Made by a program: the position numbers and the translations under genes | In this document: positions 1 through 42,071 of the stretch, in pieces | Layout of the letters: the number at the start of each line of letters is the position of its first letter | Numbering within the stretch: position 1 is the first letter of the stretch | Source of the DNA: Dehalococcoidia bacterium | GTDB taxonomy: Bacteria; Chloroflexota; Dehalococcoidia; UBA6926 | Assembly: GCA_034428515.1 (NCBI GenBank) | Contig: DAOUHQ010000013.1 | Coordinates: 82,371-146,370 of the forward strand | Length of the DNA stretch: 64,000 bases | Direction: 5' to 3' | Notes under the pieces: generated by a model | Told to the model about the DNA's origin: nothing | Databases searched by the model: none | Seen by the model: the letters and a program-made list of their open reading frames with translations, nothing else

Positions 1-461
1 TTAATCTCGAGGTTAGAATTGACGCCCCCACCCAGTCCCTTCTTGGTGAAATTGGAACTACCAACCACCCCACCGTTCTCCGCGATGTACATTTTGCCGT
101 GGAGAAAGTTCGACCGGCGCACGGACCGAACTTGGACGGTGTCCCGCTGCACCCATTCCTCACAGCGGCGAGCTAGCGCCTTCTGTTGCAGGATCTGTGT
201 GGGAGCAAGGCGGCTCTCGCTCAGATTGAACGCTCGGGCATCTTTCGCGCCGGGATCCAATTCCTCTACTGACGAAGGATCGCCGAAGAGGAACCGAGTG
301 GTATTCAAGTTGTCCAGCGAATCCGCCAACAGCTCGTATCCATAGATGCTGAAGTAGGCGGAAACAATGTCGAACGTCTCGGAACGCAACAGGCGATTCA
401 AGAGGTGGTCAACTACCCGGCGGTCGGGGGTATTATCGAGCAAGTAGCCCTGTTCGGCCAA
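1..461 (-). CDS. N-terminal PLD (HKD) domain of a probable PLD-SNF2 helicase, runs off the window edge
   Basis: Not in the ORF track. Manual translation from TTG at 461 (GGAGG 9 nt upstream): MAEQGYLLDNTPDRRVVDHLL...FDIVSAYFSIYGYELL...NFLHGKMYIAENGGVVGSSNFTKKGLGGGVNSNLEI, open to base 1. HxK...GSxN is the PLD motif. The helicase part is inferred from family knowledge. Confidence 0.72.
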   Translation of the reverse strand, partial: MAEQGYLLDNTPDRRVVDHLLNRLLRSETFDIVSAYFSIYGYELLADSLDNLNTTRFLFGDPSSVEELDPGAKDARAFNLSESRLAPTQILQQKALARRCEEWVQRDTVQVRSVRRSNFLHGKMYIAENGGVVGSSNFTKKGLGGGVNSNLEI

Positions 462-654: not shown

Positions 655-3600
655 CTATTCCAATGAAACGTCGATTGCCGTGGCTCCCCAAAAATTGAAC
701 CCGATAGAGAAGATGACTCGGGCATTTACCTTCAAGTTCCCGAAGACGCCTTGCACATCATTTCGGGAGTGGAAAAATACTCCGTCTGCGGTGCCGTCCC
801 GAATCACGAAACCGTAGTCGTACTCCAACCTGTCGATTCTCCCGGCAAACTGCTGTGGTCCTTCTTTAGCAGATATCGGGCCCCGGATGGCTCGTTTGAT
901 ATTTGGATTGAACGGAAGATCCCTGAGACGACGGAACCTGTTTCGTGCCTCATCAATATCTCCATTTACGTATAACTGGCGGGCATACCAAAACTGGGCT
1001 TCTATGTTTGAGTCACCCTCCGTGAACGCCCTCCGAAGGTGATACTCGATATCGCCATCATCGCCAGCATCTTGATCAATGAGCAACTTCGCATAGTTGA
1101 AATGAACTCGTTTATCAGTGACCCCAGATTGGATTGCGCGTTTGTAAACATTGACAGACTCAGGTACCTTGCCGCTCCCCTCTAGCATTTTGGCCAGACG
1201 GACAGCAACGAACTGACTATTGGGATTGTTATCAAAGGCAGCCTCTAAAGCTGTAATCGCTCTAGCCTCATCGGCCAATAGGTCTCCCAACTGAGATTCG
1301 GCATCTAACATGTAGGAGTCTCCAGGGAACCTCTGCAAGCCTTCTTGTATAAGCCCCTCAATTTCCTTTACAACATTTCTGAATTCGAGATCGTTCCAGT
1401 CATTCTCCTCGTCGTGAAAGAACCTCCGTAAATTGGCCAGCTGAATCTTAGCAAGAGTGTGTAGACCATGAGAGTCTACGGCAGCGGGCCCGGCCAGCGG
1501 CATCGCTAATTCTCTTGCAGCCCTTAAGCTTGACTGGAACTCCAAAGACGTCTTCGCGCCATCCGCTCGTCGCAGGTGAAGTTCTGCGAATGAGTGTGCT
1601 ATCGTCCGATCATAAGGAGCGAGAGTTCTTGCACGAGTCAAATGTTCTTCAGCCTTCTTGAGGCTTCCATTTGGCCGTACCATTTCAAAGATCGCCATCT
1701 GATGAAAAAGATACGGATACTCTCCAGCGTTCTTGCGGGCTGCGGCGAATATCTCGTCTACCATTCTGTTGTCTCGAAAGTCTTCCAGCAGAGACCTAGC
1801 TCGAACTAGCTTGCGAAAAGCTTTGCGGTCGGACTCATAATCGATGTTCATTGCGTTCAAGATGGTCAAGTGTAAATCTAGTCGTTCTTCGGGCGTGGTC
1901 ATCGCGCGAGCGACCACAATATCCGCTACATGAGGGTGTCGCGTAACATAAACGTAGTCGCCGATTCGTCGATCGAAACGGGAGAATACAAGGGCATCCA
2001 GCGGCTGAAAAAAACGCTCGGCGAATTGATTGAATCCAACTCCATACACTCGGTTGACTATTCCTGCTCGCACTGGAACGTCGTACCTGTTCAAAAAACA
2101 GACGCCCAAGTAAATCAATTGAGCGAGGATCGGACTCACCTCGGCATATTCGTCCGCAATGATGTCCTCAAAGGGTTTACCAAGCGTCGCCTCATGCAAC
2201 GCGACTAACAGTTGACGACCAGCCTTCTCTACAAACGCTGTCTTTCGTTCAGACTGCGAGACATTTTCTAGCCGAAATAGAGCACGGTGACTAGATAGGA
2301 GTTCCAGAAGTCCATCAATCTCCTTGCCTGTTAGATAGCCCACTTCGAATTCATAATCCAGGTAGGGCTCTAGCTCTTCACATGACATGTTCCACTCATT
2401 GACTCGCTCAGCCCCAATAACTGTAAGCGGGATCGTGTAACGGCGAGCTGCTTTGATTACATCAAGAACTTGAGCGGTGTGTTCACCGATATCGTCTACG
2501 AACAAGTAAATCCGCTCATTTACGACCCCCGACAATTCACGAAGAGCTTCAGGCGATAACTGGCCGCTCTTCTGCAAGAACAGGCAGAGACTATTGAAGG
2601 TTAGCGCAGCCTCCCAAGCGATTCGTTGCAATAGCACTGATTTCCCTGACCCGGCGTGGCCTTTGATTACGAATAGTCGACAGCGGGCACCTTCGACATC
2701 CTGTAGTATCGTATCTGTCAAGATGGTGTCTTGTAGCTCCCGCTTTACATCCAAGCCTTGCCCGACCGCAGCCCATCTTGGATTGTAACCTCTGTAAAAC
2801 AACTTGGCATCGAGGGCTTCTGTCGGCATAGCGTTGTATATGAAATCTACATCGCTCTCTAAGAACTCGAGGCATGACGCACTAAGGCCAGGGTCCTTGA
2901 CGACAAATCGCTCGCTGATTGGTAAGTCAGCCGCCACTGGGGATGGCACCACTCCACGGAATACACTGGGAAGTTCCCTATCTAGAGTCCGTAGGAACTC
3001 TTCGAAAGTACCCTCAAGAGGAGTGATCCGTTTCCCCTCCCAGAATCGCTTTTCAGGCCCCGACAGTTCAGGTGTTACTGTAAAATAGCGGGGCCGCTGA
3101 CTTGGCTCTCCCAAATCAAATAGGAATTGACGGATGTCTGGATCCTGAAGGCTTTGTCCTATGAACACTAGAGGATGTTCATAGGACAGATCCTTTAATT
3201 GTCCAAATAGTCGATCCCTACCTCTTCTGTGGGTGACGTATTGATCCACACTGAGGATTAAGGGCAGGGATTCGTCAGTTGTCCTAGTTATACATCCGTG
3301 TAGTTTCAAGAGCCTCAAACTCCTTGGAGATCTAAGTTTCTCTTCTATCTGGTCGCCATTCTTAATCAAAGGCACCAATTCCTGTGAAGGGTTTGGATAC
3401 GTACTATAAGCTCGCTCTATGACTAGGTCGAAATTCGTTGTCGCCAAGCCCGCCCATTTGAATGTTGGCAGCAGCGCATGAAATGAGGCAGGCTGAATGT
3501 CTTGAAACACATCGTGGATATATTGCTGTACCTCGGGCACACTACTCTCCGACATGGCCAGTTCAGAGACTATCGGTAACGGGCTATTGCTATGCTCTCC

Positions 3601-3774
3601 TCCCAGAAATTTTGTCCCTATCATTTCGGCAAGCTCTTTGCCACTCGGCGCCTTACTGCCCTCTGATGTAGATGCAGGGTTTGACGCGCCAGCGCCAAGA
3701 ACCAAGACCACCCTTCCTTCTTTCACGCTCTGCAGTAGGTTGTTGGGAATGTCCATAGCGCGCTCCAAAATCAC
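655..3774 (-). CDS. Sir2-STAND NTPase-TPR-cold-shock-domain protein (Avs5/AVAST-like anti-phage candidate)
   Basis: Sir2 motifs LVLGAGAS, TTNFD, KLHG, FIGQSL; Walker A GHAGSGKS; Walker B LFVDD; helical TPR-like region; C-terminal GRIDRLEYDYGFV...VFFH cold-shock/OB fold. Confidence 0.85.
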   Translation of the reverse strand: MILERAMDIPNNLLQSVKEGRVVLVLGAGASNPASTSEGSKAPSGKELAEMIGTKFLGGEHSNSPLPIVSELAMSESSVPEVQQYIHDVFQDIQPASFHALLPTFKWAGLATTNFDLVIERAYSTYPNPSQELVPLIKNGDQIEEKLRSPRSLRLLKLHGCITRTTDESLPLILSVDQYVTHRRGRDRLFGQLKDLSYEHPLVFIGQSLQDPDIRQFLFDLGEPSQRPRYFTVTPELSGPEKRFWEGKRITPLEGTFEEFLRTLDRELPSVFRGVVPSPVAADLPISERFVVKDPGLSASCLEFLESDVDFIYNAMPTEALDAKLFYRGYNPRWAAVGQGLDVKRELQDTILTDTILQDVEGARCRLFVIKGHAGSGKSVLLQRIAWEAALTFNSLCLFLQKSGQLSPEALRELSGVVNERIYLFVDDIGEHTAQVLDVIKAARRYTIPLTVIGAERVNEWNMSCEELEPYLDYEFEVGYLTGKEIDGLLELLSSHRALFRLENVSQSERKTAFVEKAGRQLLVALHEATLGKPFEDIIADEYAEVSPILAQLIYLGVCFLNRYDVPVRAGIVNRVYGVGFNQFAERFFQPLDALVFSRFDRRIGDYVYVTRHPHVADIVVARAMTTPEERLDLHLTILNAMNIDYESDRKAFRKLVRARSLLEDFRDNRMVDEIFAAARKNAGEYPYLFHQMAIFEMVRPNGSLKKAEEHLTRARTLAPYDRTIAHSFAELHLRRADGAKTSLEFQSSLRAARELAMPLAGPAAVDSHGLHTLAKIQLANLRRFFHDEENDWNDLEFRNVVKEIEGLIQEGLQRFPGDSYMLDAESQLGDLLADEARAITALEAAFDNNPNSQFVAVRLAKMLEGSGKVPESVNVYKRAIQSGVTDKRVHFNYAKLLIDQDAGDDGDIEYHLRRAFTEGDSNIEAQFWYARQLYVNGDIDEARNRFRRLRDLPFNPNIKRAIRGPISAKEGPQQFAGRIDRLEYDYGFVIRDGTADGVFFHSRNDVQGVFGNLKVNARVIFSIGFNFWGATAIDVSLE

Positions 3775-3966: not shown

Positions 3967-4386
3967 TCAAGGGAGTAGCTTGAACTGCCCTGAAGCTAGT
4001 CGTGAGTCCGGGCATTGTTCCATCGCCCGAATAGGAGCCATGCCTCCTTGTCTGACTTGGATGCTCAAATCGTAGCCGTCAAGCAACAACATTCCAACGA
4101 GCGGTGTGCTGCCGGATGCATCGGCCTCGATGTCTCTTGGTTGGCCATCCCATGAGACGGAGACGTAGTGAACATCGAAATTTACTTCATTGTCGACAGC
4201 CAAGATCGCTCGGCCGAATGAGGCGAAGGGCAAATCTAATGCCGCCTCCAATGGTGGCGGCAGTGTCAAGAAACCGTTGTAGCCAGTGTCAACGACAGCC
4301 GAGATGTCAAAAGGTCGCCCGTCCGCACCAAATAGGCGAAGGGGAATGATCGCCTCATATGCAGGGTTGACAATCCCCTAAATCAC
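3967..4386 (-). pseudogene. Clan AA (retropepsin-like) aspartic protease with in-frame TAG at codon 3
   Basis: GTG at 4386 overlaps the upstream TGA (GTGA). It reads M-I-*(TAG 4380-4378)-GIVNPAYEAIIPLRL...VVDTGYNGFLTLP...PLVGMLLL, with the DTG catalytic motif. Confidence 0.72.
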
Positions 4387-4673
4387 TCGGTTCTCCGCAG
4401 CGATCTGCCACTATAGCTGCGCAAAGCCCTGTATCCAACCCGCTCGCATAGGATATTAATGGCATCCGGGCACTGCTCCCGGAGGCCTTCAATCGCATCT
4501 CGTGTGGAGGGCGCAACGGCCCAAGTTCTGGAATCCACATCGATGGCGACATACTCACCGTGATGGTCACGCTCCACTTTAGGCAAGACAACTTTGTCGT
4601 ATATTTCCTTGCCTAGGCGTACCGCCTCATCTCGGGGCACGCGTGATTTTGCGGGCGTCTTCGCTTCAGACAT
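4383..4673 (-). CDS. Small DUF5678-like protein, usual partner of clan AA aspartic proteases
   Basis: HHGEYVAIDVDS...ERVGY pattern; translationally coupled to the protease gene. Confidence 0.6.
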   Translation of the reverse strand: MSEAKTPAKSRVPRDEAVRLGKEIYDKVVLPKVERDHHGEYVAIDVDSRTWAVAPSTRDAIEGLREQCPDAINILCERVGYRALRSYSGRSLRRTE

Positions 4674-4845: not shown

Positions 4846-7137
4846 CTACGCCGGCACGGCCACCCTCTCTTCCTCGTGCTCCATTGCCACTGCCCATTCG
4901 AAGAGTGACTGGGTGGGTTGGGCGTTGCGGGGGCGGCCCATTTGCTTGGGTTTCGCCTCCGCCATGAACTCCGCCCAGGAGAAGAGCGAGCTCTGCGGCA
5001 CATCGGACTCTGGCTCCGTGCTGGCGACCGCTTGGAGCGGGTGCTCGGTTTCTTCCGCCGAGTGGACTTCCACGATGGTGGGTGCAATCTGCTCCGGTGC
5101 TTGCCAGCCGTCGTCCACCAGGTACGATTCCGACTCGGTTTCGGAAGCTCGGGCCTGGGCGAAAGCGGCTTCCACCGTGTCCGCCGCGTCGTCCTCATCG
5201 CCATTGACCAGCTTGCGAGCCAGGGCGAGCATGAGGTCATCGCCGTCGTCACCGTAGGCTGCGAGGCCATCCTCGGGTAGCTCTCCTTCGACTGCTAGCG
5301 ACGACTGGAGCTTCTTTGCCACCAGCTTGAGCGCGTCGGCTTGAAGGGTGTTCCAATAGGCCATCAAGATGACCTTCACGGGCCGGGTCTGGCCGATCCG
5401 CCACGAACGTCGGGATGCCTGCCGCATCGTGTACACCGAGTAGTCCGTCTCGTACCAGACGATGGTCGGGAAGTCCACGAGGTCGAGGCCGGTCTGGACA
5501 AGTCGCGGGTGGCAGATGATGACATCCACCCCCTGCTTGACCTTCTCTGCCACCCACGCCTCGCGCTTCTCCGGTGCCACCGCGTCCGCCTTCATCACGG
5601 CCACCTTGAACCCGTGTCGCGTGAGCATGTCGTCCATGCGGCCGGTGATGTCGCGGGTGCCCGTGTGAGTGGTGTAGACGAGGACCCGCCGCCCAGCCAA
5701 CCGTTCCGCCGCGACCAGGTCGAGCAGCGCCTTCTCCTTCGGGTAGACGCGATCCTCGGCCAGCGGCGGCACCTGGATGAGGGGCTCGCCAGAGTCCGGA
5801 TCGAAAACCGTCTCGCCACGCGTGCAGCCGTCAGGGTAGGCCAGCAGCGACTGCAGGTAGGTGGAAAGGAGCCGCCGCGACCCGTCGGCCAACGCCTTTA
5901 CCATCGCGTGCCGCAGCTTCTCGAACAGCTTCTCGTAGGCCGACTTCTGCGAGAAGCCCGTCGCATCGGCATCCGGGTCCATTCCCGCCAGCATGACCTG
6001 TTCCTCGTAGTCGGGCAGGCCGGATGCCACGTCCGACAGCCGCAGGAACACCGAGTTACCGATGAGGTGGAAGAGCGCGGACGGCGCGAGGCCGGGGCGT
6101 TCCTTCACAGTCTTCCGATACTTGCGACGGCGGCTGTTGCGACCGTCCTCCGTGAAGCGGTCGTCGTCCTTGCCGATGGAGTGCTCGACGAAGCCGTAGC
6201 GTGTGATCCAGCGTCCCTCCTCGGACCGTCCGAACTCCGAACGAATCGCCGGGCTGAACCTGTAGAGCAGGTGAAACAGCGTCGAGCTGTAGCCGCCCAA
6301 CAGCGTGCCGGTCAGTGTGAGCGACCGACCGCAGGCGTCGGCTAGCACGCCCGCCGCGATGCCCTGCGCGGAGCCTCGTCCCTTGTACTCATGGACCTCG
6401 TCTCCGATTAGCAGGTCGAAGAATCCGCGCATGTGGTTCTTGACGTAGTCGGAGAGCGGGTAGCGGCGCGGCCCTGAGTTGTCCGCCTGCCAGAGCGGGC
6501 CGTGGCACTCGGGGCAGTTCCGCTTGCGGCGCGAGAGGTCCTCGTCCGAGAGCGGCACGCCGTCGGCGTCCACGATCTGCTCCGCGCAGACGGGGCAGGT
6601 CGGGATGCGAAACGGCAGCCCTGTCTCCTCCATCCGCATCAACCTGCCGCCCGCGACCGCCCAGCGGTTTACGACGGCGGGCTGCCAGCGGTAGGACAGT
6701 TTGGCGCGCTCGCGGGACATGATGGCGAAGAGCGGGCCAAGTGTGACAGCGCGTCTGAGGTTCACCAGGTCCGTGATGGAACTGACGATCACGGCACGTG
6801 CGCCCGGGATGGTCTGCTCGACCTCTCGCTTCCACTTAACGGTCAGGTGGGGCGGCACGAGGACGAGGATGCGTTGAAAGCCGGCGGCGTGCGCGGCGGA
6901 CGTCGCGATGAACGTCTTGCCCGTACCCATCTCGCCGACGACGGTTGTGCCTCGGTTCGCCCGGAGCGAGAGCGCCGCCCCGCGAATCGCGTCCGCCTGA
7001 GCGCCGAGCGGGGTGCGGAGCAGCGTGGGCAGCGGAACCGAACCGGCGTCGGAGGGCCGGTAGAGGGGAGGGTAGGATTCCACGACGCGCTGAGCGATTG
7101 CGTCCTTGTAGGTGTCGATGAATTCACCGAGATTCAT
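4846..7137 (-). CDS. SF2 (SNF2/DEAD-like) helicase of ICE type
   Basis: Walker A GEMGTGKT, DEVH box, TLTGT, helicase-C motifs (TGLDL...QASRRSWRIGQ). Start set at MNLGEF (7137, AAGGAAAGGAAGG upstream) rather than 7674. Confidence 0.85.
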   Translation of the reverse strand: MNLGEFIDTYKDAIAQRVVESYPPLYRPSDAGSVPLPTLLRTPLGAQADAIRGAALSLRANRGTTVVGEMGTGKTFIATSAAHAAGFQRILVLVPPHLTVKWKREVEQTIPGARAVIVSSITDLVNLRRAVTLGPLFAIMSRERAKLSYRWQPAVVNRWAVAGGRLMRMEETGLPFRIPTCPVCAEQIVDADGVPLSDEDLSRRKRNCPECHGPLWQADNSGPRRYPLSDYVKNHMRGFFDLLIGDEVHEYKGRGSAQGIAAGVLADACGRSLTLTGTLLGGYSSTLFHLLYRFSPAIRSEFGRSEEGRWITRYGFVEHSIGKDDDRFTEDGRNSRRRKYRKTVKERPGLAPSALFHLIGNSVFLRLSDVASGLPDYEEQVMLAGMDPDADATGFSQKSAYEKLFEKLRHAMVKALADGSRRLLSTYLQSLLAYPDGCTRGETVFDPDSGEPLIQVPPLAEDRVYPKEKALLDLVAAERLAGRRVLVYTTHTGTRDITGRMDDMLTRHGFKVAVMKADAVAPEKREAWVAEKVKQGVDVIICHPRLVQTGLDLVDFPTIVWYETDYSVYTMRQASRRSWRIGQTRPVKVILMAYWNTLQADALKLVAKKLQSSLAVEGELPEDGLAAYGDDGDDLMLALARKLVNGDEDDAADTVEAAFAQARASETESESYLVDDGWQAPEQIAPTIVEVHSAEETEHPLQAVASTEPESDVPQSSLFSWAEFMAEAKPKQMGRPRNAQPTQSLFEWAVAMEHEEERVAVPA

Positions 7138-7241
7138 GGGCGTCCTTCCTTTCCTTTTGGTGCTATGGTGATTCGGCGAGGCTCCGGCACCCGGTGGGGG
7201 AGGGTGACGGAGCCTTGAGATTCGGCCATGGCATTGACCGT

Positions 7242-8282
7242 CTAGGCGGCGATGTCTGTTATCTCGCCGTCGTCGAGGCCGAGGGCGACGACCGTCGTCT
7301 TCAGCCTCTCGCGGAACACCTCCTTCTCCGGCGTCTCGTCGACGAGCTCCATCTCCTTCGACGTGCGCCCCTTGACGAGGATGCGCCTGCCGTCCGCCTC
7401 CAGCTGGAGGTTGTCCAGGAAGCCGGCCGCCACGAGCATGGCCATGTGACCGCGCCGCAGCGGCATGAGCGGACGGGTGCGGTCCTCGCTCGCGGGCCAG
7501 AGGACATCTGTGATTTGTGGGTTCGTCCACAACCCGGCGCGTCTCGCCTCGACCGCCGCGGCAACGGGATCGACCGTGCGCCGCGTGAAGAGGATGTCCC
7601 CGACGGCGGTCACCGGCGGATAGAAGACCGTGTACTGGGAGTGGGTCAGCGTCTCGGGCTCCCCCTCGGCCCATTCCCTGATCTGCGCCTCCGTGGAGGA
7701 GTCGGGGCTGGGATCCGAGCGCCGGATGGCCATGAGCACCACCTGGTCGAAGACCTCCCGCTCGGGGTCGGGAAACGCCCAGCAGCGCACCCGCGTGTAG
7801 TGGGTCGACAGGAACCGCGCCGAGACGGCGAGCCGTTGGCGGGGCACGATGAAGACCAGCACGCCGCCGTCGACCAGGTAGCGGGTGCAGTGGGTGAGGA
7901 AGGCGTGTTCGACGCGCTTCTTGTCGTCCTGCTCCCAGTCGTAGGGCGGGTTCAGGTACAGCAGCCCGAACGCGCCGTTGGCGATGGACGTCTGGAAGGC
8001 GTCCGCCGGGAGCACGTGGTCGAGCCGTTCGGCGGCCTCTTCTGCCCGCTCCTTGTGGAGCTCGACGCCGTAGCTCTCGACCGCCGCCGTGCCGCCCTGC
8101 CGGAGCAGATCGGTCAGCCGTCCGAGAGCGTCGCCCGGGCCGCAGCAGGGATCGAGCGTGCGGATGCTCGCCTTCGATGCCTGATGGTAGCCGTAGGGCT
8201 GCCGCATCAGGCCGCCGATCATATCGACGACCCGGTCCGGCGTGGGATAGTAGCCGCCCTTGGCCTGTGCCGCGAGTCTCAT
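7242..8282 (-). CDS. SAM-dependent DNA methyltransferase-like protein (DUF6094-type)
   Basis: GGYYPTP, LDPCCGPG (motif I), LYLNPPY (amino-MTase motif IV). Start set at MRLAAQ (8282, AAGGAG upstream). Confidence 0.85.
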   Translation of the reverse strand: MRLAAQAKGGYYPTPDRVVDMIGGLMRQPYGYHQASKASIRTLDPCCGPGDALGRLTDLLRQGGTAAVESYGVELHKERAEEAAERLDHVLPADAFQTSIANGAFGLLYLNPPYDWEQDDKKRVEHAFLTHCTRYLVDGGVLVFIVPRQRLAVSARFLSTHYTRVRCWAFPDPEREVFDQVVLMAIRRSDPSPDSSTEAQIREWAEGEPETLTHSQYTVFYPPVTAVGDILFTRRTVDPVAAAVEARRAGLWTNPQITDVLWPASEDRTRPLMPLRRGHMAMLVAAGFLDNLQLEADGRRILVKGRTSKEMELVDETPEKEVFRERLKTTVVALGLDDGEITDIAA

Positions 8283-8295
8283 GTGACTCTCCTTT

Positions 8296-11992: not shown

Positions 11993-12099
11993 CTCCTTTA
12001 AGAGGAGGCGGGGCCATCCCTCATTTCGGGAGGCGGCCCCGCTGTGCTGCTCGTGGACTGGCGACTAGGCCGCCGTCGGTGGCTCCGCCGGCCTAGTCT
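11993..12099. repeat. Intergenic double-hairpin repeat, copy 3 (rad52-like/TSCPD)
   Basis: CTCCTTTAAG, then CGGGGCCATCCC...GGGAGGCGGCCCCG (12009-12041), then a GACTAGGCC/GGCCTAGTC stem. Confidence 0.7.
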
Positions 12100-12832
12100 G
12101 TTCGTCGACCTTCCTCTCCGCCGCCGCAACCAGATCGGCCAATTCTTCGGTGCTGATCTGGGTGATGGCTCTGCCGGTGCGCGCCTTGACCGCGGCCTCC
12201 ACCTGCTCGGCGTTGAATCCTTGTGCTTTGCCGAGCTCGTACAGACGGATGCCCAACTTCTGCCTCTCGACCGCCGGCCTGGTCGACGGCTCCCTCGTCA
12301 CTTCGACGATGGCCGTCTGCGGATCGCCGTAGAGCGCGTTTCCGAAGCGCGCTCCGAAAGAGCGCAGCGCCCGCTTGAGGCCGTCGGTGACGGCTCCCTT
12401 GACGGCCGTCTCATGCCCGTCGGCGTTGTCCTCGACGACTGCGTGGAATCCAACGTCCATGCGGGAAGGCGCTCCAAGGACCGTGACGCGCACGGTGGCG
12501 GCGTAGGCGCGGATGCGGCGGATCTCGCCCGTCTTGGCGTCGATGCTGTCGATCTTCCGCAGTGTCACCTCGCCCATCACGTCGTAGCCCCAGCCGCCGT
12601 AGCCGAAGACGCGATTGGCTTCGTCAATGACCGTGTGCCCCTCGATGTACGAGAAGGTCTTGCCGCCGCGCCCCTTCCGCTGGGAGACAAGTGCGGGGTC
12701 GATGGGTGTGTCCAACTCCTGCCTGATGCCGGGCGCGAGACCGTCCCAGAGGATGGCGTCGTGCCCGTTCACCGGCGTGATGGCGGTAGGCTTCGTGCCG
12801 TTCTTGTGACCGTTCTCATTCGTGCTGACCAT
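12065..12832 (-). CDS. Rad52/Rad22-family (Sak-like) single-strand annealing protein
   Basis: RKGRGGKTFSYIEGHTVIDEANRVFGYGGW...AVKGAVTDGLKRALRSFGARFGNALY. Start set at MVSTNE (12832). Confidence 0.88.
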   Translation of the reverse strand: MVSTNENGHKNGTKPTAITPVNGHDAILWDGLAPGIRQELDTPIDPALVSQRKGRGGKTFSYIEGHTVIDEANRVFGYGGWGYDVMGEVTLRKIDSIDAKTGEIRRIRAYAATVRVTVLGAPSRMDVGFHAVVEDNADGHETAVKGAVTDGLKRALRSFGARFGNALYGDPQTAIVEVTREPSTRPAVERQKLGIRLYELGKAQGFNAEQVEAAVKARTGRAITQISTEELADLVAAAERKVDEQTRPAEPPTAA

Positions 12833-12885
12833 TGTTCTCTCCTTGCTTGTCCGATAGGTGAGCGGGCCGTCAGTCGACCCGTGTG

Positions 12886-12910
12886 CGGGGCGAAATAGCC
12901 CCGTCGTCGC
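12886..12910. repeat. Shortened copy 4 of the intergenic hairpin (primase/rad52-like)
   Basis: CGGGGC-GAAATA-GCCCCG-TCGTCGC; shares the AGCCCCGTCGT flank with copy 2. Confidence 0.5.
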
Positions 12911-12917
12911 TTGCTGG

Positions 12918-13970
12918 TTATCGTTCCCGTCTCTTCTCCCGCGCCGCATCGGCCAACTGGGCGATGAAGGCGGCGCGTCCGTCCGGCGCGGTGGCGAGTT
13001 CGCCGACGTCCATGAAGTCGCGAGGAAGCTGGACGACCGCCGAACGACGGCCCAAGAGGGCAGAGAGTCGTTCGGCGGCGGCGACGCCGGCATCGTCCCT
13101 GTCGAAGGCGACGAACACGTTGGCGAACCGCGAGACCGCCTGAGCGACACGTTCGAGGCCCTGTGTTCCAAGGGCGGCGCAGCCGGGTAGGCCCCACTGC
13201 GCCAGCGTCAGCCAGTCGAACATCCCCTCCGTGACGATGACCCATCGGGCATCGCTGGGGATGGAGCCCAGACCGAGCACCGGCTTGGAGCCGGTCAACG
13301 CCTGGAAGCGAGGCCGCGCCCCGTGCGTGATCGCTCGCCCCCCGAGCCATCGGACGAGGCCGCCGGCAACGTCGGGCACGACGAGCCTGCCTCCGAAGCG
13401 CTCTGCGCCACGTTCCGTGAACAAACCGGAGCGGGCTACCCGCTCGCCGTCGAAGCCGGCGGCGAGCAGCGCCTCGCGCAGTCGCGCTCCCGGCGCGTAG
13501 CCGAGACCGAGCTTGATTGCCGTGGCAATCGCGATTCCTCGACCTTCGAGGTAGGCGAGCGCGTCCTCGCTTCCAAGCAGCTGTGCTGCGTAGAAGCGCG
13601 CGGCCGCCGTGAGGACGGCGCGATCCCGCGCTGGAGGCGGCTCCACGCGCGCCCGCGACTCAAGCCGGGCGTTGCGTGGGTTAAGGACGGCAGTGCCGCC
13701 AAGCAGTTGCAACGCTCCGACGAGTGGCACCGACTCCGTCCGCTGGATGAAGTCCAGTACGTCGCCGCCCTCGCCGCAGCCGAAGCAGTACCACCGCTGC
13801 GAGTCGCCGTAGACAGTGAAACTGCCCTCTGCCTCGTCGTGGAACGGGCAGACGCCCTGACGGACGCGGCCCGTGCCGCGCAACTTCACGCCGGCGGACT
13901 CCACGATGGCGGCGAGGTCGTGACGCGCCTTGACCGCCGCGATGTCGATGCAGGGTGCTGCGACAGTCAT
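12918..13970 (-). CDS. dnaG: DnaG-type primase (CHC2 zinc finger + Toprim), element-encoded
   Basis: CPFH...WYCFGCG; Toprim VTEGMFD and AFDRD; lacks a C-terminal helicase-binding domain. Start set at 13970. Confidence 0.85.
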   Translation of the reverse strand: MTVAAPCIDIAAVKARHDLAAIVESAGVKLRGTGRVRQGVCPFHDEAEGSFTVYGDSQRWYCFGCGEGGDVLDFIQRTESVPLVGALQLLGGTAVLNPRNARLESRARVEPPPARDRAVLTAAARFYAAQLLGSEDALAYLEGRGIAIATAIKLGLGYAPGARLREALLAAGFDGERVARSGLFTERGAERFGGRLVVPDVAGGLVRWLGGRAITHGARPRFQALTGSKPVLGLGSIPSDARWVIVTEGMFDWLTLAQWGLPGCAALGTQGLERVAQAVSRFANVFVAFDRDDAGVAAAERLSALLGRRSAVVQLPRDFMDVGELATAPDGRAAFIAQLADAAREKRRER

Positions 13971-14422
13971 GCCGGCCTCCCCGTGAGGTCCCGCAAGCCG
14001 CGCAGGCTTCGACGGGAGACAACCTTCCCGGGCCGCCACTTCATGCCGAGCGCGGCAACAACTTCGAGATCGCCCCGGGCGAGTTGTCCCAGGGCGGCGG
14101 CACGACCGTCGCCCTGCGTGTAGACCAACACCCGCTGCCGCCCGAAGCAGCGGCGCACGAGGTCAAACCACTCGTTGTAGAGCCACCGCTTCTGCTCCAG
14201 CGCTGCGCCTCTGGCGTCGGCCGCCGAGAGCGTTGCCAGTGCCTCCTCGGGCTTGCCCTCGCGCCGTAGCCGACGTGCCTCGTGGATCGCCCTGGCGATG
14301 CTGAGAGACTCTCTCTTCTCCGAGTTCCGTCCGAAGATGGCCGCGATCAACCTGTCCACCAGCGGCTCCAACGCCGCCATCGGACTCTCGTCGATGAACT
14401 CAGTTGCCGTTGTCGTGGTCAT
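13967..14422 (-). CDS. Hypothetical protein
   Basis: Start MTTTT at 14422 after AAAGGG; TGA overlaps the primase ATG. Confidence 0.6.
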   Translation of the reverse strand: MTTTTATEFIDESPMAALEPLVDRLIAAIFGRNSEKRESLSIARAIHEARRLRREGKPEEALATLSAADARGAALEQKRWLYNEWFDLVRRCFGRQRVLVYTQGDGRAAALGQLARGDLEVVAALGMKWRPGKVVSRRSLRGLRDLTGRPA

Positions 14423-18779: not shown

Positions 18780-20480
18780 ATGAGAGAACACGAGGTACCG
18801 ACACACGTGCAGGCCGAGGACAAGGTGCTGCTGTGGCTCACCTTTCCGCAGGTGGTGACGCTAATCGCGGTGGCCGCTGCCGCCTACGGGACGTTCAGCT
18901 ACGCGCCCGGACCCACCGCGCTCCGCATCGGTGTCGCCGCAGTCATCGGCTTGGTCGGCGCCGCTGCGGCGGTGGGTCACATTAATGGACGGCGTCTGCC
19001 TATAGTGATCGCCGACTTGCTGAAGTACTGGCTGGGGCCTCGCCGTTTCGCCGGGCAGGTGACGGAACTGATGCGGCTCGCGCCCGTGCTGGTCATCGAG
19101 GCCGACCCAGGGTTGTTTGAGCGAATGCAGGAGAAGGGACGACGGCGATTCCGTCGACTTTGCCGTCGTCGTGACCGACGAAATGGCGGCAAACCCGACC
19201 GCAACTCGGACGAACACGGGAAGCGCAGGCCCAAGGGAGTGAAGCCACCCAAGCGGGACGGTGCGGCAGGGAGAACCACCTTCAGCCAACGGAAGTGGGT
19301 AGTCGGAGCAGCAATGGTCGCTCTCTGCCTCGTTGCCGCCTTGCCTCAGATGGCGTTCGCGCAAGGCGACCGAGACGAGCGTGGTTCGCGCATCTCTGAG
19401 GTGGGGATCGAGTTGCCGCCGCCTGTGCTTGGAAGGCGTGTCTTCGTCGAAAGCATCACAGTCTCCGACGATCGGGCGCGGGTGTCGGTCCGCGCTGCGG
19501 CGGATGTCAGCCTCAGTACAAGGGCGTACGGCGGGGATGACGACGAAACACTGCGATTCGTGGACAGGGTATCGCTACAGCAGGGCGAAGCGGAGACGTT
19601 CGACGTACCGCTGAACGGTGAAAGGCCATCAGTCACTCTCTCATGGGTCGATTCGCTCGGACAGGCGGGTGGGTTCAGTCTGTCAGGCGAACAGATCCCG
19701 CATCCCCTCCCGTCGATGGACGGAGGGCTCTGCGATGCGCAGCTCACATCCCTATCCGTGTCACGCGCCGGTGTCAATGGGACCGTCTCGACGGACTGCA
19801 AGCGGCGAGTGATGGAGACTATGGAATTGCGGACCGTCACCGGCCCCGACCCGGTCGAGATCCTGACCGTAAGGGAGGCGGAGATCACGGGCATTACCGG
19901 ACGGCTGAGCGCCCGTCTCGGCAGTGAAGAGACAGTCGTGCCGCTCGTTACTGACGGAGCGACGTCCTTCAGCGTCGCCGTCGACCCGTCGGCGGGCGTC
20001 CACGACATTTCGCTCAGTGTGGACATCCGCGGTGCGGTGCGCATTCCTGTACCGCCGTTGGTCACGATGCGCACCGTTCCGGAACGGACGGTGAGGCAAT
20101 CACACGTCGTGTCCGTCCTGCGCCCCGGGATCAGCAGAAATGTCTCCGAAACCGTAACCATTCTCTGCGAGGACGGGACTGAGGAACGCCACAGGATTTC
20201 TGTTCGTCTGTCCATCCCAGCCAGGACAATCGAAAAGGCCACAAGAGTCCCAGTCACCTATCAGTCCTACGTCACGGCGGAGATTACGGAACGAGACCCC
20301 GCCATGCGCTGGCGTGACGAGAGAATCCAGATGGCATCGACCGCGTGGGCAGACGCTCCCTACACGGTGTTGGCGTTGCCCGAGCCGGAACCGACGCCAG
20401 AAGTGGCGGAGCAGATTCCTGCGAGCAGTGGCGTCGTCGAAGATCTCTTCGAGAGGATCGGTTGGGAGTGGCCGTGGTGA
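18780..20480 (+). CDS. PrgI (VirB3-like) family protein fused to a large exported beta-rich domain
   Basis: N-terminus HEVPTHVQAEDKVLLWLTFPQ is PrgI-like; internal signal-like segment ending MAFA-Q. Confidence 0.68.
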   Translation: MREHEVPTHVQAEDKVLLWLTFPQVVTLIAVAAAAYGTFSYAPGPTALRIGVAAVIGLVGAAAAVGHINGRRLPIVIADLLKYWLGPRRFAGQVTELMRLAPVLVIEADPGLFERMQEKGRRRFRRLCRRRDRRNGGKPDRNSDEHGKRRPKGVKPPKRDGAAGRTTFSQRKWVVGAAMVALCLVAALPQMAFAQGDRDERGSRISEVGIELPPPVLGRRVFVESITVSDDRARVSVRAAADVSLSTRAYGGDDDETLRFVDRVSLQQGEAETFDVPLNGERPSVTLSWVDSLGQAGGFSLSGEQIPHPLPSMDGGLCDAQLTSLSVSRAGVNGTVSTDCKRRVMETMELRTVTGPDPVEILTVREAEITGITGRLSARLGSEETVVPLVTDGATSFSVAVDPSAGVHDISLSVDIRGAVRIPVPPLVTMRTVPERTVRQSHVVSVLRPGISRNVSETVTILCEDGTEERHRISVRLSIPARTIEKATRVPVTYQSYVTAEITERDPAMRWRDERIQMASTAWADAPYTVLALPEPEPTPEVAEQIPASSGVVEDLFERIGWEWPW

Positions 20481-20788
20481 GACGCCGCGCAGTATCCGCG
20501 GTGGTCGTTGCCGCGGGGATTCTGTCTCTGGGGGCGGTCACACCGGAGCAGCGAGCCATGCTCCACACATTCGACCAGGTGTTGACGGGCATGGTCTACG
20601 CGGCGGCGGGGCTGGCCGTGTTCTCAGTCGTCTGGGCGGGTTTCGTGCTCATGGCGGAGGGCGCGGAAGGCAGGGAAACGGGTCGGGCGCGAAATGCGGT
20701 CCTGCTCGCACTTTCCGGGCTAGTTCTCGTCCTGTCGGCGAAGGTTCTTGCCATTGTCCTCATCAACGGCATAGTCCCGATTCCATGA
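20477..20788 (+). CDS. Second VirB2/pilin-like membrane protein
   Basis: GTG overlaps the upstream TGA; TM-loop(AEGAEGRETGRARNAV)-TM architecture like the first pilin. Confidence 0.6.
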   Translation: MRRRAVSAVVVAAGILSLGAVTPEQRAMLHTFDQVLTGMVYAAAGLAVFSVVWAGFVLMAEGAEGRETGRARNAVLLALSGLVLVLSAKVLAIVLINGIVPIP

Positions 20789-20805
20789 CAGAGGGAGAGT
20801 CCACC

Positions 20806-23025
20806 ATGAAAGACATGCAGAACGGGGCCGAGAGGCCCGACCCAACCACAGACGACGGCCAGCTCACGCGGTTCTTCATGATCTCGCACGTCGAGGACGA
20901 TGGTCCGGTACGTGCGGACGGCGTCAAGCTCGGAATCCTAGAATCGCTTGGCCTCGAACTCGACGAGGCGAAGCTCGGGGCGTTCGCGGGGGCACTCAAC
21001 GCGATAGACTTCCCGGTGCAGCTTCTCATCAGGCAACATGCACCGGAACTTAGCCGTTTACGCGCGCAGTTGACGACCGATCAGCCGGAGAACTTGCCTC
21101 CACGGACGGCCTCTGCCGCCGATTCCCTGCGTGGATTGCTGACCGACCTGGAAAGCCGCGAGGGCGTTGTCGACCGTCGATTCTACGCCGTCTGCGCGTT
21201 CGAGCGGATTGACGATCTGCGTGGCCTCATGGTGCGCGCAGGACTGGCGGTCAATCACATGACTGGCCGCCAGTTGCGGATGCTGATTCTCTCGTCTGCA
21301 GCGGGCAATTCCCCGCGAGAAGTCGGAAATGAGGAAGGCCTTGAGATTGAGATCCGGCGGCGTGAGATTCGTGTGGGGGATACGCTTGCGCGGGCTCTGC
21401 ACCTTGGCAAGTGGCCCCGCGCGTTGATACCCGGTTTTCTTCAGGCTCTGATGGCGTCCGGTACACGGATGGACGTGTCAATCCATCTCGGCCCCATACC
21501 CGCCGATCAGGCATCCCGCACGCTTGAATGGCAAAAGGTGCGGTTCGAGTCGGCCCAATCATTGTCACTGCGGCGGGGCAGGACCATGTCGCCGGAGGCG
21601 GAGATTGCGCTGGAGGACGTGAGGCGTCTGCGGGATGAAGTGCAGCGGGGAAGGGAGCGACTCTTTCATTCCTCGCTGTCCATCACCCTGTACGCCCGCG
21701 ACGAGACAGAACTCAAGGAGACGACGCAGGGTGTCCGGGCCCATTTCGCGGCCACCCTTGGCAAGATCGATACCTTGCCGTTCCGGCAGCGTGAGGGCCT
21801 CTTGTCGTCACTGCCCATAGGGCTGAATTCTATCGGGACGTGGCGGACACTGGACACGTCCTCGCTCGCGCGGCTCTTCCCCTTCTCCCCGCCCGACCTC
21901 GACACACGCAGCGGCACGCTCTACGGCATCGACCTGCGCTCGTCGTCTCCCATTGTCTATGACCCGTTCGACGGCACACACCTGAACGCCAATACAGCCG
22001 TGCTCGCTCGATCCGGCAGCGGCAAGTCTTTTGCCACGAAACTCGGCGTGCTGCGCGGCATCTGCCGCGGGGTAACCGCGTACGTCATCGATCCCGAGGG
22101 CGAGTATGCAGATATGGCGCGGGCGGCGGGAGGCCGCGTTCTCTCACCGGGAGTGCCGGGCCAAGGCATGAATCCGTTCGTCATCGACCGCTCCGACAGC
22201 GAGGAATTGCTGCTTCGCATCGGCAGCTTGAGGCGTCTGATCGAGGTCATGGTCGGTGAACCGCTCGGCGCTGAGAGGAGAGCAGTTCTGGACCATGCGC
22301 TTGCCGCCTACTACATGGAGCCCAGAGAGAGAACGGGGTTTCGGGACTTCTACGAGCACCTGAAAGAGCACGGCGACGGAGTCTTGGATAAACTGCTCAG
22401 GCCGTTCGCGACGGGCAGCCTCAGGCATCTCCTTACGGATGAGGGTGACGATCTGTTGATCAACGAGGCTCCGGTCACCGTGTTCGATCTCCGGCTGCTT
22501 GAGCCCGAACTGCGCCCTGCGGCCGCAATGGTCTGCACGGAAACGGTCTGGACTGCGGCCGCACAGAATCCGAAACCTCGAGTGCTCGTCGTTGATGAGG
22601 TCTGGTCGATAATGCAGCATCCTGAAGGAGCGGCATTCATGGTCAGCATGGCCAAGCGCGCCCGAAAGCACCGGCTTGGTCTGCAGTTCATTACTCAGGA
22701 CGTGCAGGATCTGTTGTCCGAGGACACGTCGCGTGCTATCACCGGCCATTCAGGTCGTGCGTTGCTCCAGAACGCCGCTTTCAAGCTGCTGCTTCAACAG
22801 GACGCGGCGGCCATCGGCACAGTCGGTGACGCATTCGATCTCCCCGATGATCTCCAACGTTGGCTAATCTCTTGTCCGCGTGGAGACGGCCTGTTGCTGG
22901 CGCGCGGCGGAAGGTTCCCGATTCGCATCGAGGCCACGAGGGAGGAGGCCGAGGTCATTGAATGGAGGCCCGGCCGCCATCGACGACAGACCGTTACATC
23001 AAACAGCGCGGAGGTGACGCAATGA
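20806..23025 (+). CDS. virB4: VirB4-like conjugation ATPase
   Basis: Walker A ARSGSGKS, VIDPEGEY, Walker B LVVDEVW, KRARKH, ITQDVQD. Start set at 20806 (GAGGGAG upstream). Confidence 0.9.
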   Translation: MKDMQNGAERPDPTTDDGQLTRFFMISHVEDDGPVRADGVKLGILESLGLELDEAKLGAFAGALNAIDFPVQLLIRQHAPELSRLRAQLTTDQPENLPPRTASAADSLRGLLTDLESREGVVDRRFYAVCAFERIDDLRGLMVRAGLAVNHMTGRQLRMLILSSAAGNSPREVGNEEGLEIEIRRREIRVGDTLARALHLGKWPRALIPGFLQALMASGTRMDVSIHLGPIPADQASRTLEWQKVRFESAQSLSLRRGRTMSPEAEIALEDVRRLRDEVQRGRERLFHSSLSITLYARDETELKETTQGVRAHFAATLGKIDTLPFRQREGLLSSLPIGLNSIGTWRTLDTSSLARLFPFSPPDLDTRSGTLYGIDLRSSSPIVYDPFDGTHLNANTAVLARSGSGKSFATKLGVLRGICRGVTAYVIDPEGEYADMARAAGGRVLSPGVPGQGMNPFVIDRSDSEELLLRIGSLRRLIEVMVGEPLGAERRAVLDHALAAYYMEPRERTGFRDFYEHLKEHGDGVLDKLLRPFATGSLRHLLTDEGDDLLINEAPVTVFDLRLLEPELRPAAAMVCTETVWTAAAQNPKPRVLVVDEVWSIMQHPEGAAFMVSMAKRARKHRLGLQFITQDVQDLLSEDTSRAITGHSGRALLQNAAFKLLLQQDAAAIGTVGDAFDLPDDLQRWLISCPRGDGLLLARGGRFPIRIEATREEAEVIEWRPGRHRRQTVTSNSAEVTQ

Positions 23026-36813: not shown

Positions 36814-37070
36814 GTGACTCTTTACCGGGCCAGCTTCTGGTGTAGAGGAACCCGTACTCTTGCGGCTATATTGAGTCAGCCTACCAAAATACATGTAACT
36901 GATGTGTCATTTTTTGATGATAACTCATGACTTTTTATGACGATTTGGAGAACTCTGTAAGATTGCCTCCGTTGGCACCCAATTATGCGGCACCTAAAAT
37001 GGAAGGAATGTAGATGCCCGCATGTCCGCATCGAGGCAACTATGTGGACCGATCAGACGAACTGATGTGA

Positions 37071-37431: not shown

Positions 37432-37462
37432 GCCCCTTACCAGTCGAACGGTGGGGGGAACG

Positions 37463-38908: not shown

Positions 38909-38921
38909 GAGCTACCGCGTC

Positions 38922-41900: not shown

Positions 41901-42071
41901 CTCATTCTCTGGAAGGACGTGTTCGCGCGATCCCGGCGTGCCCTGCGCAACCGCGTTATTATGGCGCGCGGTGTTGTCTCTCGCTGGGACGGCACGACGA
42001 ACATCATCGCCTCGGAAATCCGTGCCATCAACACCGATGTCCCCATGCCAAACGCTCACGACTGGCACTGA
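38922..42071 (+). CDS. dnaE2: Error-prone DNA polymerase III alpha (DnaE2/ImuC)
   Basis: PHP domain ELHAKSFYSF, PPGRGRGSS, PDIDLDF, FPESHS, C-terminal OB fold; follows imuB. Confidence 0.93.
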   Translation: MTSPYTELHAKSFYSFGEGASHVHELLAQAKEYGYDALALTDTNLCGALEFARLAKSLGVKPITGGELTLCDGSRITLLAKSKQGYANISRLFTLANSVDRREPRLDPVHLLDHAEGVVLIAGGRDGQLSRLALSGRHDDAQKLLRDYLDWFGPDGVFVELQQNLIRGDTTRNRELARLARDTGVCLVPTNDVHYHAPERYRLQHALVAAKHNTTIDQALPHIRPNHHFHLKPHDAMARLFEREYPGIIDVTRRIAEQCDFNLADSINYELPEPDVPAGYTTDSYLQRLCFEAAMRRYGGISQRVQDRLDEEFSLIKRHGIAGFLLLYRDIVLLAQQIMEERELTPPEIPLEERPPGRGRGSSVALLVGYLIGISHIDPIKWDLTLERFISEDMSMLPDIDLDFPRGLRDELITRVHRRYGPDYAALTGAISTYSVKGIIQDIGKALGLPKEDLTLLSKQLHSHHADDLKEEMLRLPAYKDRVESQGWRELIELAPQLMDAPRSLGQHVGGMILSSSPISEMTPIREGAIVGRYIMDWNKDTIADANVAKIDLLSLPVLDQLEQSLDLIEQRTGSRPDLSRVEPDDDNVYDMINEGRAKGIFLLQSPAQLKMAQRLRSRNLLDLAYQVALIRPGVGVQGSSVSQFVERYRHGAKWDYDHPLEKRALERGYGIIVWQEQVVQLLADVAGVTTAEADEIRRTFGRPNNAALIEMHWQRFLEGARRNGVPDDIAEKIFGKVNGHYMFPESHSHAFAITAYQAAWLKRYHPLEFFVTLINNQPMGFYPMETLKQDARRFGVPFLNPCVNRSQALCISEGGAVRLGLGFIRDVGEAAARAIVEEREARGRYGSPADLVSRTGITPQAAASLVMAGAFDDVSSNRRQALWDVGLANRPLRSGQRTLAATTDHVTPQLKDFLEYEKMVGEYRVMGIYPRGHVMEFVRSTLNDHVLRTSDVYNMPEDQEVLVAGWPIARQHPRGRDGTVFVTIEDECGDVQLILWKDVFARSRRALRNRVIMARGVVSRWDGTTNIIASEIRAINTDVPMPNAHDWH

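Follow-up and report, generated by a model that had tools for sequence, protein, structure and literature searches.

To our knowledge, all characterised bacterial antiviral STAND proteins (Avs1-5, 7, 8, 10-21) sense phage proteins via helical sensors. Here we describe a gene that encodes a SIR2-STAND protein with tetratricopeptide repeats (TPRs) and a C-terminal cold-shock domain (CSD), and compare it with described proteins of similar layout, SAMD9 and Avs5. The gene lies at positions 655..3756, on the minus strand, of a 64,000-nucleotide stretch of a Dehalococcoidia bacterium genome (contig DAOUHQ010000013.1 of assembly GCA_034428515.1, positions 82,371 to 146,370 of the forward strand). This whole stretch is referred to below as the window.

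[quoted passage not shown] Bacterial proteins with the SIR2-NTPase-TPR-OB core of the SAMD9 family have thus already been described (PMC5445408, PMC12680541). More specifically, the SAMD9-like bacterial STANDs of Legrand et al., 2025, reported there to be strong analogues of SAMD9/9L in structure, are the Desulfobacula protein A0A1F9N8W4, termed 'Avs5', together with Avs6, which has a PNP effector, and Avs9, which has AlbA_2 (PMC12680541). [quoted passage not shown] Two later papers link Avs5 sensors with SAMD9 (PMC12931631; bioRxiv 10.64898/2026.01.04.697583).

SIR2-effector antiviral STANDs and SAMD9-like bacterial analogues are therefore already known; what appears uncharacterised is an nSTAND5 clade with an obligatory CSD that resembles cold-shock proteins (CSPs). 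In public annotation, the labels given to members of the clade are limited to 'SIR2 family protein', 'P-loop NTPase' and 'cold shock CspA family protein/TPR'.

A complete four-module gene

A single uninterrupted open reading frame (ORF) occupies 655..3774 on the minus strand and comprises 1039 codons when counted from a GTG. The original prediction had placed the start at this in-frame GTG (3774), which is probably not the true start: we take 655..3756 (1033 codons, stop at 655-657) as the gene because the public gene call, present on three contigs, is a 100% identical protein of 1033 aa, because the homologue alignment begins at M1, that is at ATG 3756, and because a GGAG precedes this ATG with a 6-nt spacer. 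Pfam positions given below use the 1039-aa numbering from the GTG, and residue numbers elsewhere refer to the 1033-aa protein. The GC content of the gene is 49.6%, compared with 62.5% for the surrounding element. Promoter and terminator scans of the locus gave matches at chance level only.

The protein is made up of four modules, all on the minus strand: a SIR2 domain of the NADase type (residues 1-265; 2962..3756), a STAND NTPase or NOD (residues 320-620; 1897..2799), an all-helical TPR-like solenoid of ~340 aa (residues 621-960; 877..1896) and a C-terminal CSD of 68 aa (residues 966-1033; 658..861). Pfam, family profiles and a full-length AlphaFold2 (AF2) model agree on this architecture, which bears out the succession of Sir2, Walker A/B STAND NTPase, TPR and terminal CSD/OB fold that had been read from the sequence at the outset. 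The AF2 model, which serves as the structural check proposed at that time, is confident and compact (pLDDT 86.5, pTM 0.83) and shows the helical solenoid followed by five terminal β-strands (969-1032). Confidence is lowest in a variable linker between the SIR2 domain and the NTPase (residues 266-319; 2800..2961, minus strand), where residues 269-275 have a pLDDT <50; pairwise identity among homologues is also lowest there of all segments (0.34).

The C-terminal module is a genuine cold-shock domain

With the single sequence, Pfam places the CSD family (PF00313) at 986-1037 with 21.4 bits and an E-value of 2.3e-4, under the gathering score of 27; many homologues carry a precomputed PF00313 match. 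Because the score is below threshold, the assignment was tested in four further ways, by profile search, by hhalign, in the full-length AF2 model with its five terminal β-strands and with a model of the isolated domain. A profile of the last 68 residues, compared with the PDB, retrieved CSD1 of Unr (4.5e-11), CspE (8.5e-9), CspA/CspB (~5e-8) and YB-1 (~1e-3), with matches that span the full CSP length, and a profile of the whole protein retrieved the same PDB CSDs. Aligned to CspA/CspB with hhalign, the tail profile matched end to end with a probability of 94% and an E-value of 2e-8. A model of the isolated domain (pLDDT 89) superposed on CspA with TM 0.77/0.80 and an rmsd of 2.2 Å. In a structural search with this model the top 50 PDB matches were all cold-shock domains, and its similarity to CspA, Unr and YB-1 ranged over TM 0.77-0.81 and rmsd 1.6-2.5 Å.

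The C-terminal module is a genuine cold-shock domain. With CspA/B/E, Unr and YB-1 it has in common a barrel of five strands, the signature DG..D-[VI]-[FY]-x-H and aromatic residues of the RNP1 and RNP2 type, at an identity to CSPs of 20-28%. Whereas CSPs are free-standing, the CSD of the window protein is fused to a receptor of 960 aa.

The domain is fixed across a large, mobile family

A word-index search returned >1000 relatives. The best 120 are nearly all 1030-1050 aa long and match with 99% query coverage and 43-67% identity, and the C-terminal module is present in every one of the 110 full-length homologues among them. Their tails follow the pattern F-x-G-x-V-x-[RK]-[LIVM]-E-x-x-Y-x-F-[IV]-x-R-D-G-x-x-D-x-[VI]-[FY]-x-H ... 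W-x-x-L ... R-V-x-F-x-I-G-F-N-F-x-G-P-x-A. Among homologues, pairwise identity is 0.48 in the SIR2 domain, 0.43 in the nucleotide-binding domain (NBD), 0.56 in the helical and winged-helix domains (HD-WHD), 0.36-0.39 in the TPRs and 0.36 in the CSD.

In a collection holding one genome per species, at least 224 genome stretches encode a relative, a lower bound from a scan that used two peptide patterns. Phylum, module and identity counts were taken from the best 80 of these 224 stretches. They cover >20 phyla in a patchy distribution, at 35-60% identity, with Dehalococcoidia closest (57-62%), followed by Nitrospirota, Acidobacteriota, Planctomycetota, Gemmatimonadota, Cyanobacteria, Bacteroidota, Pseudomonadota (including Pseudomonas and Halopseudomonas), Saccharibacteria and an Asgard archaeon contig. 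All four modules sit in one ORF at 76 of the 80 loci; at the other four, the gene is disrupted in three cases, with the CSD still encoded, and truncated by a contig end in one, and the CSD is found in 79/79 loci with an intact 3' end. It is likewise kept in eight viral-contig copies and in a divergent Klebsiella plasmid copy.

An exhaustive search of 1.84 billion representatives with the NOD only gave 320 clusters at 50% identity (E<=1e-30). The best 148 of these 320 clusters comprise 110 complete four-module proteins, the remainder being fragments, and two of the 148 representatives have a degenerate CSD tail with degenerate RNP motifs in an otherwise intact protein. Among the same best 148 representatives, no other N-terminal effector was found on this NOD: short proteins proved to be fragments with partial SIR2 or linker sequence, so that effector swapping is unsupported.

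Family members were also found on 15 plasmids, nine of which are conjugative K. pneumoniae plasmids, with clinical Klebsiella and Acinetobacter plasmids included, and on 8 viral contigs. Across this large, horizontally mobile family all four modules are fixed. The CSD had been read as an 'extra' that set apart a special variant; it is instead the fixed C-terminus of the whole family (110/110 homologues; 79/79 loci) and its hallmark, and the copy in the window is an ordinary, intact member. Conservation of the CSD, which had been named as a check on its relevance, held in every intact copy examined apart from the two degenerate tails among 148.

Some relatives extend beyond the CSD. Two of them (P0139 and P0190) carry a PNP_UDP_1 phosphorylase/nucleosidase domain after it (1e-15 and 4e-18), a fold that serves elsewhere as an ATP-degrading defence effector, and in a third (P0153) the extension is 416 aa long, gives no Pfam match and is cyclase-like by eye. 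The CSD is thus not always terminal, and dual-effector variants may exist.

The SIR2 domain, NTPase and repeat array

The SIR2 domain matches SIR2_2 (PF13289) at 110-253 with an E-value of 4e-20, above the gathering score, and carries the GAGAS Rossmann motif at residues 21-25. Its catalytic residues, Asn108 (3433-3435, minus strand), which aligns with EfAvs5 N141, and His153 (3298-3300, minus strand), are both invariant in 110/110 homologues. The family profile matches the defence SIR2 NADases KomC, DSR2 and ThsA with E-values of 1e-12 to 1e-8, and Foldseek superposes the domain on their SIR2 domains with TMt 0.67-0.75. With both the catalytic pair and the helical sub-domain kept, SIR2 is presumably the effector of the protein. 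ThsA (Thoeris), DSR2 and KomC/HAM-SIR2 have the SIR2 fold and the catalytic residues in common with the window protein but lack its STAND NTPase, TPR and CSD chassis; ThsA is activated by a signalling nucleotide, DSR2 by a tail-tube protein and others by partner proteins.

The NOD matches nSTAND_NTPase5 (PF25199) at 326-468 with an E-value of 2e-28, above the gathering score. The protein shows the features that define STAND NTPases, namely a Walker A motif of the form GxxxxGK[ST], a Walker B motif of the form hhhhD[DE], helical and winged-helix domains and a repeat array. Walker A (GHAGSGKS; 2638-2661, minus strand) has G369, G371 and K372 invariant in 110/110 homologues, D421 of Walker B (YLFVDD; 2491-2508, minus strand) is kept in 108/110, and R451 is invariant. 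The family-signature motif GRQLLVALHEATLGK (residues 513-527; 2176-2220, minus strand), in the helical/winged-helix part of the NOD, hardly varies between phyla and is conserved more strongly than any other part of the protein. The His of GRQLLVALHEATLGK may be a nucleotide-sensing counterpart of the MHD-type histidine of other STANDs. In the AF2 model the chain passes from the NBD through a helical part and a WHD-like β-hairpin region (590-605) into the solenoid, where helix pairs assigned by DSSP run unbroken from 622 to 955. Pfam reports TPR_14/TPR_19 around 912-957 above the gathering score and TPR models, including TPR_CcmH, that together span ~835-957, and TPR proteins of the PDB align to the family profile at 810-950. 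The solenoid is presumed to be the sensor arm.

A PDB search with the single sequence returned only TPR noise, and family profiles were therefore needed. With these, EfAvs5 (PDB 9jap) is the sole PDB protein that matches beyond single domains (i-E 5e-9 in SIR2 and 1e-7 in the NOD). It is also the one significant match of a NOD-only profile (8e-10), for which the other P-loop matches are all STAND/NLR structures, and the top Foldseek match (E 1.5e-21). Residues N108, K372 and D421 align with EfAvs5 N141, K379 and D426, each of which is required for defence (PMC11897194). A structural search of BFVD gave generic AAA/TPR matches only.

Structural likeness to SAMD9

Of all PDB entries, human SAMD9 superposes best on the protein over its whole length (PDB 9zjs_B; Foldseek E 1.9e-20, TM 0.41/0.40 over 1133 columns), and the window protein has the domain order of the SAMD9 core, that is SIR2-like, STAND NTPase, TPR and C-terminal OB. 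It differs from SAMD9/SAMD9L in having neither the SAM domain nor the AlbA_2 tRNase effector: Pfam gives no AlbA match N-terminal to SIR2, and the protein begins directly with SIR2. The SIR2 domain of SAMD9 is without an NAD lid and acts as a scaffold (PMC13600222), whereas that of the window protein keeps its catalytic residues and helical sub-domain.

The Desulfobacula protein A0A1F9N8W4, compared here by its description alone, is described as lacking only AlbA_2, which is the architecture seen here. Avs6 and Avs9 bear other N-terminal effectors, in contrast to the family of the window protein, in which no N-terminal swap was found among the best 148 representatives and only rare C-terminal PNP_UDP_1 additions were seen.

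Proposed activation and the part played by the cold-shock domain

We consider it likely that the protein is a stand-alone, NLR-like STAND protein acting by abortive infection and carried as cargo of a defence islet on an integrative conjugative element (ICE), by the mechanism set out below. That it is an anti-phage NADase STAND can be said with somewhat greater confidence. The steps of the mechanism follow from work on Avs5 and SAMD9. In the uninfected cell, the protein would be a closed, nucleotide-bound monomer with its TPR-CSD arm folded back on the NOD and SIR2. A phage-derived cue would engage the arm and release this lock, after which the NOD would drive oligomerisation, the SIR2 domains would pair, NAD+ would be hydrolysed and the infection aborted. 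By analogy, NAD+ depletion after oligomerisation or filament formation would be the output of both this protein and Avs5.

The CSD is best explained as an integral part of the sensor/regulatory arm rather than an add-on. It is probably needed for activation or oligomerisation, and we rank a sensor/latch module above a nucleic-acid trigger. Our best guess, by analogy with SAMD9, is that the CSD is docked on the last TPRs, where its contacts would gate oligomerisation. In SAMD9 the OB domain has TPR2 as its anchor; it is in contact with the NBD while the protein is closed and bound to SIR2 in activation intermediates, and OB/SIR2 mutants are dead (PMC13600222). Furthermore, deletion of the OB domain of human SAMD9 leaves dsDNA binding intact and abolishes oligomerisation (PMC12015307), and there is further SAMD9 precedent for a role of the OB domain (bioRxiv 10.64898/2026.02.01.703102).

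Several points weigh against this account. The 'latch' role would be carried over to the CSD from the SAMD9 OB domain by analogy, and the resemblance to SAMD9 in look and working, although supported, is a structural likeness only. SAMD9 chains were not retrieved from the PDB at E<=10 by either the full-length or the NOD profile, and the CSD profile matches SAMD9 only over the last ~21 residues (OB strands) at a sub-threshold E of ~0.1. With the sequence match to SAMD9 limited to these strands, no shared descent is claimed here; for Avs9, a published study favours convergence (PMC12680541). The second acidic residue of Walker B is variable (D in only 80/110 homologues), so that ATP hydrolysis may not be required. 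PADLOC and NCBIfam models, applied to the window protein and a Klebsiella homologue, gave matches to the SIR2 domain only (ThsA, PDC-S25 and Dsr1/2 fragments) and no family-level model, and our literature search found no paper on nSTAND5/PF25199 or on a SIR2-STAND-cold-shock architecture as a defence system. Finally, one homologue lies among housekeeping genes, beside RNase Y/RecA.

The alternative that survives best makes the CSD the primary trigger receptor: phage ssDNA or ssRNA, as intermediates of replication or packaging, or a nucleoprotein, and not a protein recognised by the TPRs, would switch the NADase on. The tail resembles authentic RNA/ssDNA-binding CSDs (E 1e-11 to 1e-8) far more than it does generic OB folds, with TM ~0.8 to CspA and to the RNA-bound CSDs of YB-1/Unr. 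It has an RNP1-like Y981-G-F983-V and an RNP2-like V993-F994-F-H996, and the stacking residues of CspA are kept across phyla: F18 as Y981 (96/110), F20 as F983 (89/110), F31 as F/Y994 (105/110), H33 as H996 (93/110) and Y42 as W1005 (104/110), the window protein itself having Phe at residue 1005 where these 104 homologues have Trp. The basic residues R/K976, R986 and R1013 are conserved as well. Against these, or at least in favour of a further role, stand the replacement of CspA W11 by Arg/Lys, the deletion of F12-N13 in β1 and the loss of F34. Moreover, the most invariant motif of the CSD is a family-specific β4-β5 hairpin (I-G-F1020-N-F-x-G-P) that is absent from CSPs, and the conserved aromatics could equally form a docking surface.

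Conservation along the arm is similarly two-sided. The TPR-CSD arm is evenly conserved (36-39% pairwise) and not hypervariable, which would fit an invariant ligand, but two of the 148 representatives have degenerate RNP motifs in a protein that is otherwise intact. Precedent speaks for proteins: all Avs triggers so far are proteins (PMC11897194, PMC12931631, bioRxiv 10.64898/2026.01.04.697583), in human SAMD9, the one precedent from experiment, nucleic-acid binding was not reduced on deletion of the OB domain (PMC12015307), and that domain acts through OB/SIR2 and OB/NBD protein contacts (PMC12015307, PMC13600222). On balance, the CSD as primary receptor is rather doubtful. A less exclusive proposal fares slightly better. 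The conserved RNP-type residues favour nucleic-acid binding, and the face they form could be available for a ligand such as single-stranded nucleic acid; that the CSD binds nucleic acid as part of triggering is accordingly a tentative proposal, and one we lean against. The latch and the nucleic-acid trigger are mutually compatible. Most demanding, and unlikely, is that the CSD is a working single-strand sensor, which would make this the first bacterial NLR-like (Avs-type) receptor triggered by phage nucleic acid or nucleoprotein instead of a folded phage protein, and a living 'minimal SAMD9'.

Judged by its domains, this appears to be the simplest bacterial protein found with the full SIR2-NOD-TPR-OB layout of SAMD9/9L, and its SIR2 appears catalytically intact, unlike that of SAMD9. 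It offers a tractable system for two questions: whether the OB/CSD of SAMD9-type receptors is a ligand sensor or an assembly latch, and whether SIR2 was the original effector of the chassis before SAMD9/Avs9 gained a tRNase. If the CSD does sense nucleic acid, the family would be an ancestor-like form that shows the original job of the OB domain of SAMD9/9L. If the CSD is only structural, the annotation is still useful as that of a new Avs-like family missed by PADLOC. The protein is not a one-off fusion, yet as a 'minimal SAMD9 core' it is open to experiment, and it makes a bacterial NLR-like receptor a candidate for sensing something other than a protein.

Relation to Avs5

The original prediction called the protein 'AVAST type 5-like'. 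This stands as no more than a loose likeness: the SIR2 and the NOD of EfAvs5 can both be aligned, Foldseek ranks EfAvs5 first, and both proteins are single polypeptides with an N-terminal SIR2 bearing the same catalytic Asn/His, a STAND NTPase and a helical-repeat C-terminus. It does not stand as a class assignment: the NOD is of the nSTAND5 and not the nSTAND3 type, and PADLOC gives no Avs5 match. The PADLOC check that had been proposed gave matches to the SIR2 domain and no family-level or Avs5 match. More specifically, Pfam does not report nSTAND3 (PF20720) at E<=1 for the window protein, nor for a Klebsiella homologue; the NOD profile does not retrieve PaAvs5 (PDB 9nc9); and no Avs5 match was obtained at E<=1 in PADLOC-DB v2, a library in which the presence of an Avs5 model is unconfirmed, with a single Avs hit, to Avs2 on the P-loop, at 0.008. 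The window protein shares about 14-16% identity with EfAvs5 and is ~165-270 aa longer than Avs5, with a much longer TPR arm that ends in the CSD. Because the NOD is nSTAND5, nSTAND3 goes undetected, PaAvs5 is not retrieved, identity is only ~15% and PADLOC gives no Avs assignment, we regard the family as a distant sister of canonical Avs5 and not a member of it, remotely homologous to EfAvs5 in SIR2 and NOD. What emerges is a large mobile sister family of Avs5 with a bona fide CSD, its ligand-stacking residues preserved, at the tip of the presumed sensor.

The protein is quite unlikely to be a canonical Avs5 that behaves like EfAvs5/PaAvs5 with a functionally irrelevant CSD. Such a view draws on the shared N-terminal SIR2, STAND NTPase and helical C-terminus, on EfAvs5 as the best PDB match by sequence and Foldseek, and on the 'Avs5' label that DefenseFinder gave to the SAMD9-like SIR2 protein of Desulfobacula in Legrand et al. 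(PMC12680541); it is at odds with the nSTAND5 match (2e-28), the ~16% identity and the short EfAvs5 sensor without an OB domain, and a CSD kept strictly by all intact copies speaks against its being functionally irrelevant.

Still less probable is an integrated decoy, in which the CSD, by analogy with plant NLRs, would mimic host cold-shock proteins and so bait a phage factor that hijacks CSPs. The tail is CSP-like along its whole length, with CSP surface motifs kept, and host CSPs are known to be bound by phage proteins; the structural matches include a complex of a phage endolysin with CspC (8h1i/8xyf). However, the invariant I-G-F-N-F-x-G-P hairpin and the β1 deletion are unlike any host CSP, identity is 20-28%, and the idea is purely one of analogy.

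Genomic neighbourhood

The gene sits in a low-GC islet that, by its GC profile, runs past the start of the window. On the same strand and 193 bp downstream is an HKD/PLD+Snf2 helicase gene of 1085 aa, of which the first 461 nt lie in the window (1..461, minus strand); it matches the PADLOC model C3a139 'HKD+Snf2' at 6e-104 and is DrmD-like by NCBIfam. Past the helicase, on the public contig (L001), follow a 77-aa ORF and a type IIG restriction-modification (R-M) enzyme (REase_MTase_IIG, 3e-88); helicase, ORF and R-M enzyme together occupy L001 13296-19465 and fall within the islet. An islet with these neighbouring defence genes on an ICE agrees with the defence role first proposed. No such neighbour was found beside homologues elsewhere in the contexts examined.

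Homologues were seen beside type I R-M, ThsB-TIR and HepT/MNT genes, beside a giant methylase-helicase and an integrase, and among toxin-antitoxin modules and transposases. A 1044-aa member on K. pneumoniae plasmid CP043374.1 (30279-33413) is flanked by insertion sequences, carries no annotation beyond 'SIR2 family protein' and is missed by the Avs models of PADLOC. No partner gene was conserved over eight contexts (four genomic loci, the window's own contig, one plasmid and two viral contigs), which points to a single-gene system. Mobile contexts that share no neighbour bear the mark of a defence gene that is self-contained and passed on horizontally.

On the same comparison of eight contexts we reject a multi-gene system with the adjacent HKD-Snf2 helicase, despite its position on the same strand 193 bp downstream. 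Together with that system, we give hardly any weight to a non-immune protein, a regulatory STAND sirtuin (deacylase/ADP-ribosyltransferase) in RNA metabolism or stress: SIR2 domains can be deacylases and one homologue has the housekeeping neighbours mentioned above, but this SIR2 matches the SIR2_2/ThsA/DSR2/KomC NADase group and not classical sirtuins, and the family is taxonomically patchy with copies on plasmids, prophages and ICEs.

The helicase, the 77-aa ORF and the type IIG enzyme could make up a separate R-M unit, DISARM-like or helicase-assisted. Carriers of the family in clinical K. pneumoniae include conjugative IncF resistance plasmids with KPC/qnrS1, CP043374.1 among them. On one IMG/VR contig (L092, 3897-17406) the gene order is terminase, portal, 213-aa ORF, SIR2-STAND, protease, major head and tail; the homologue thus occupies a moron-type position between the portal and head-protease genes, which implies phage-borne carriage. 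On another (L097, 2127-14611) the homologue has a P4-type primase on one side and two tyrosine integrases on the other, an arrangement that recalls P4-like satellite defence hotspots.

The ICE extends over ~4.8-44.6 kb of the window and is recognised from its gene content: a helicase with a DUF6094 methyltransferase (4846-8285), a Rad52-like protein (12065-13171), a DnaG-type primase (12918-14039), a VirB4/TraC ATPase (20314-23025), a type IV coupling protein (22962-25619) and a large serine recombinase (42975-44630). The 3' end of the recombinase gene overlaps a tRNA-Val (44573-44649), beyond which is a tRNA-Met (44761-44835). Also on the element are an ImuB-like Y-family polymerase and a DnaE2-type error-prone polymerase III alpha (37451-42071, plus strand), a mobile mutagenesis cassette, and a 2421-aa ORF with fibronectin type III repeats (29629-36894, minus strand), whose product may be a surface or adhesion component of the conjugation apparatus. 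Upstream of the SIR2-STAND gene, an ORF at 3967-4377 (minus strand) matches TIGR03698 (8.6e-16) and encodes an aspartic protease of clan AA (retropepsin-like). No ATG, GTG or TTG lies upstream of its VDTGYNG active-site motif, the first canonical start being a TTG at 4269, after the motif; the ORF may have decayed, or its start may be an unusual one. The protease is preceded by a 96-aa ORF (4383-4673, minus strand) that matches no family, and the two could form a small two-gene cassette.

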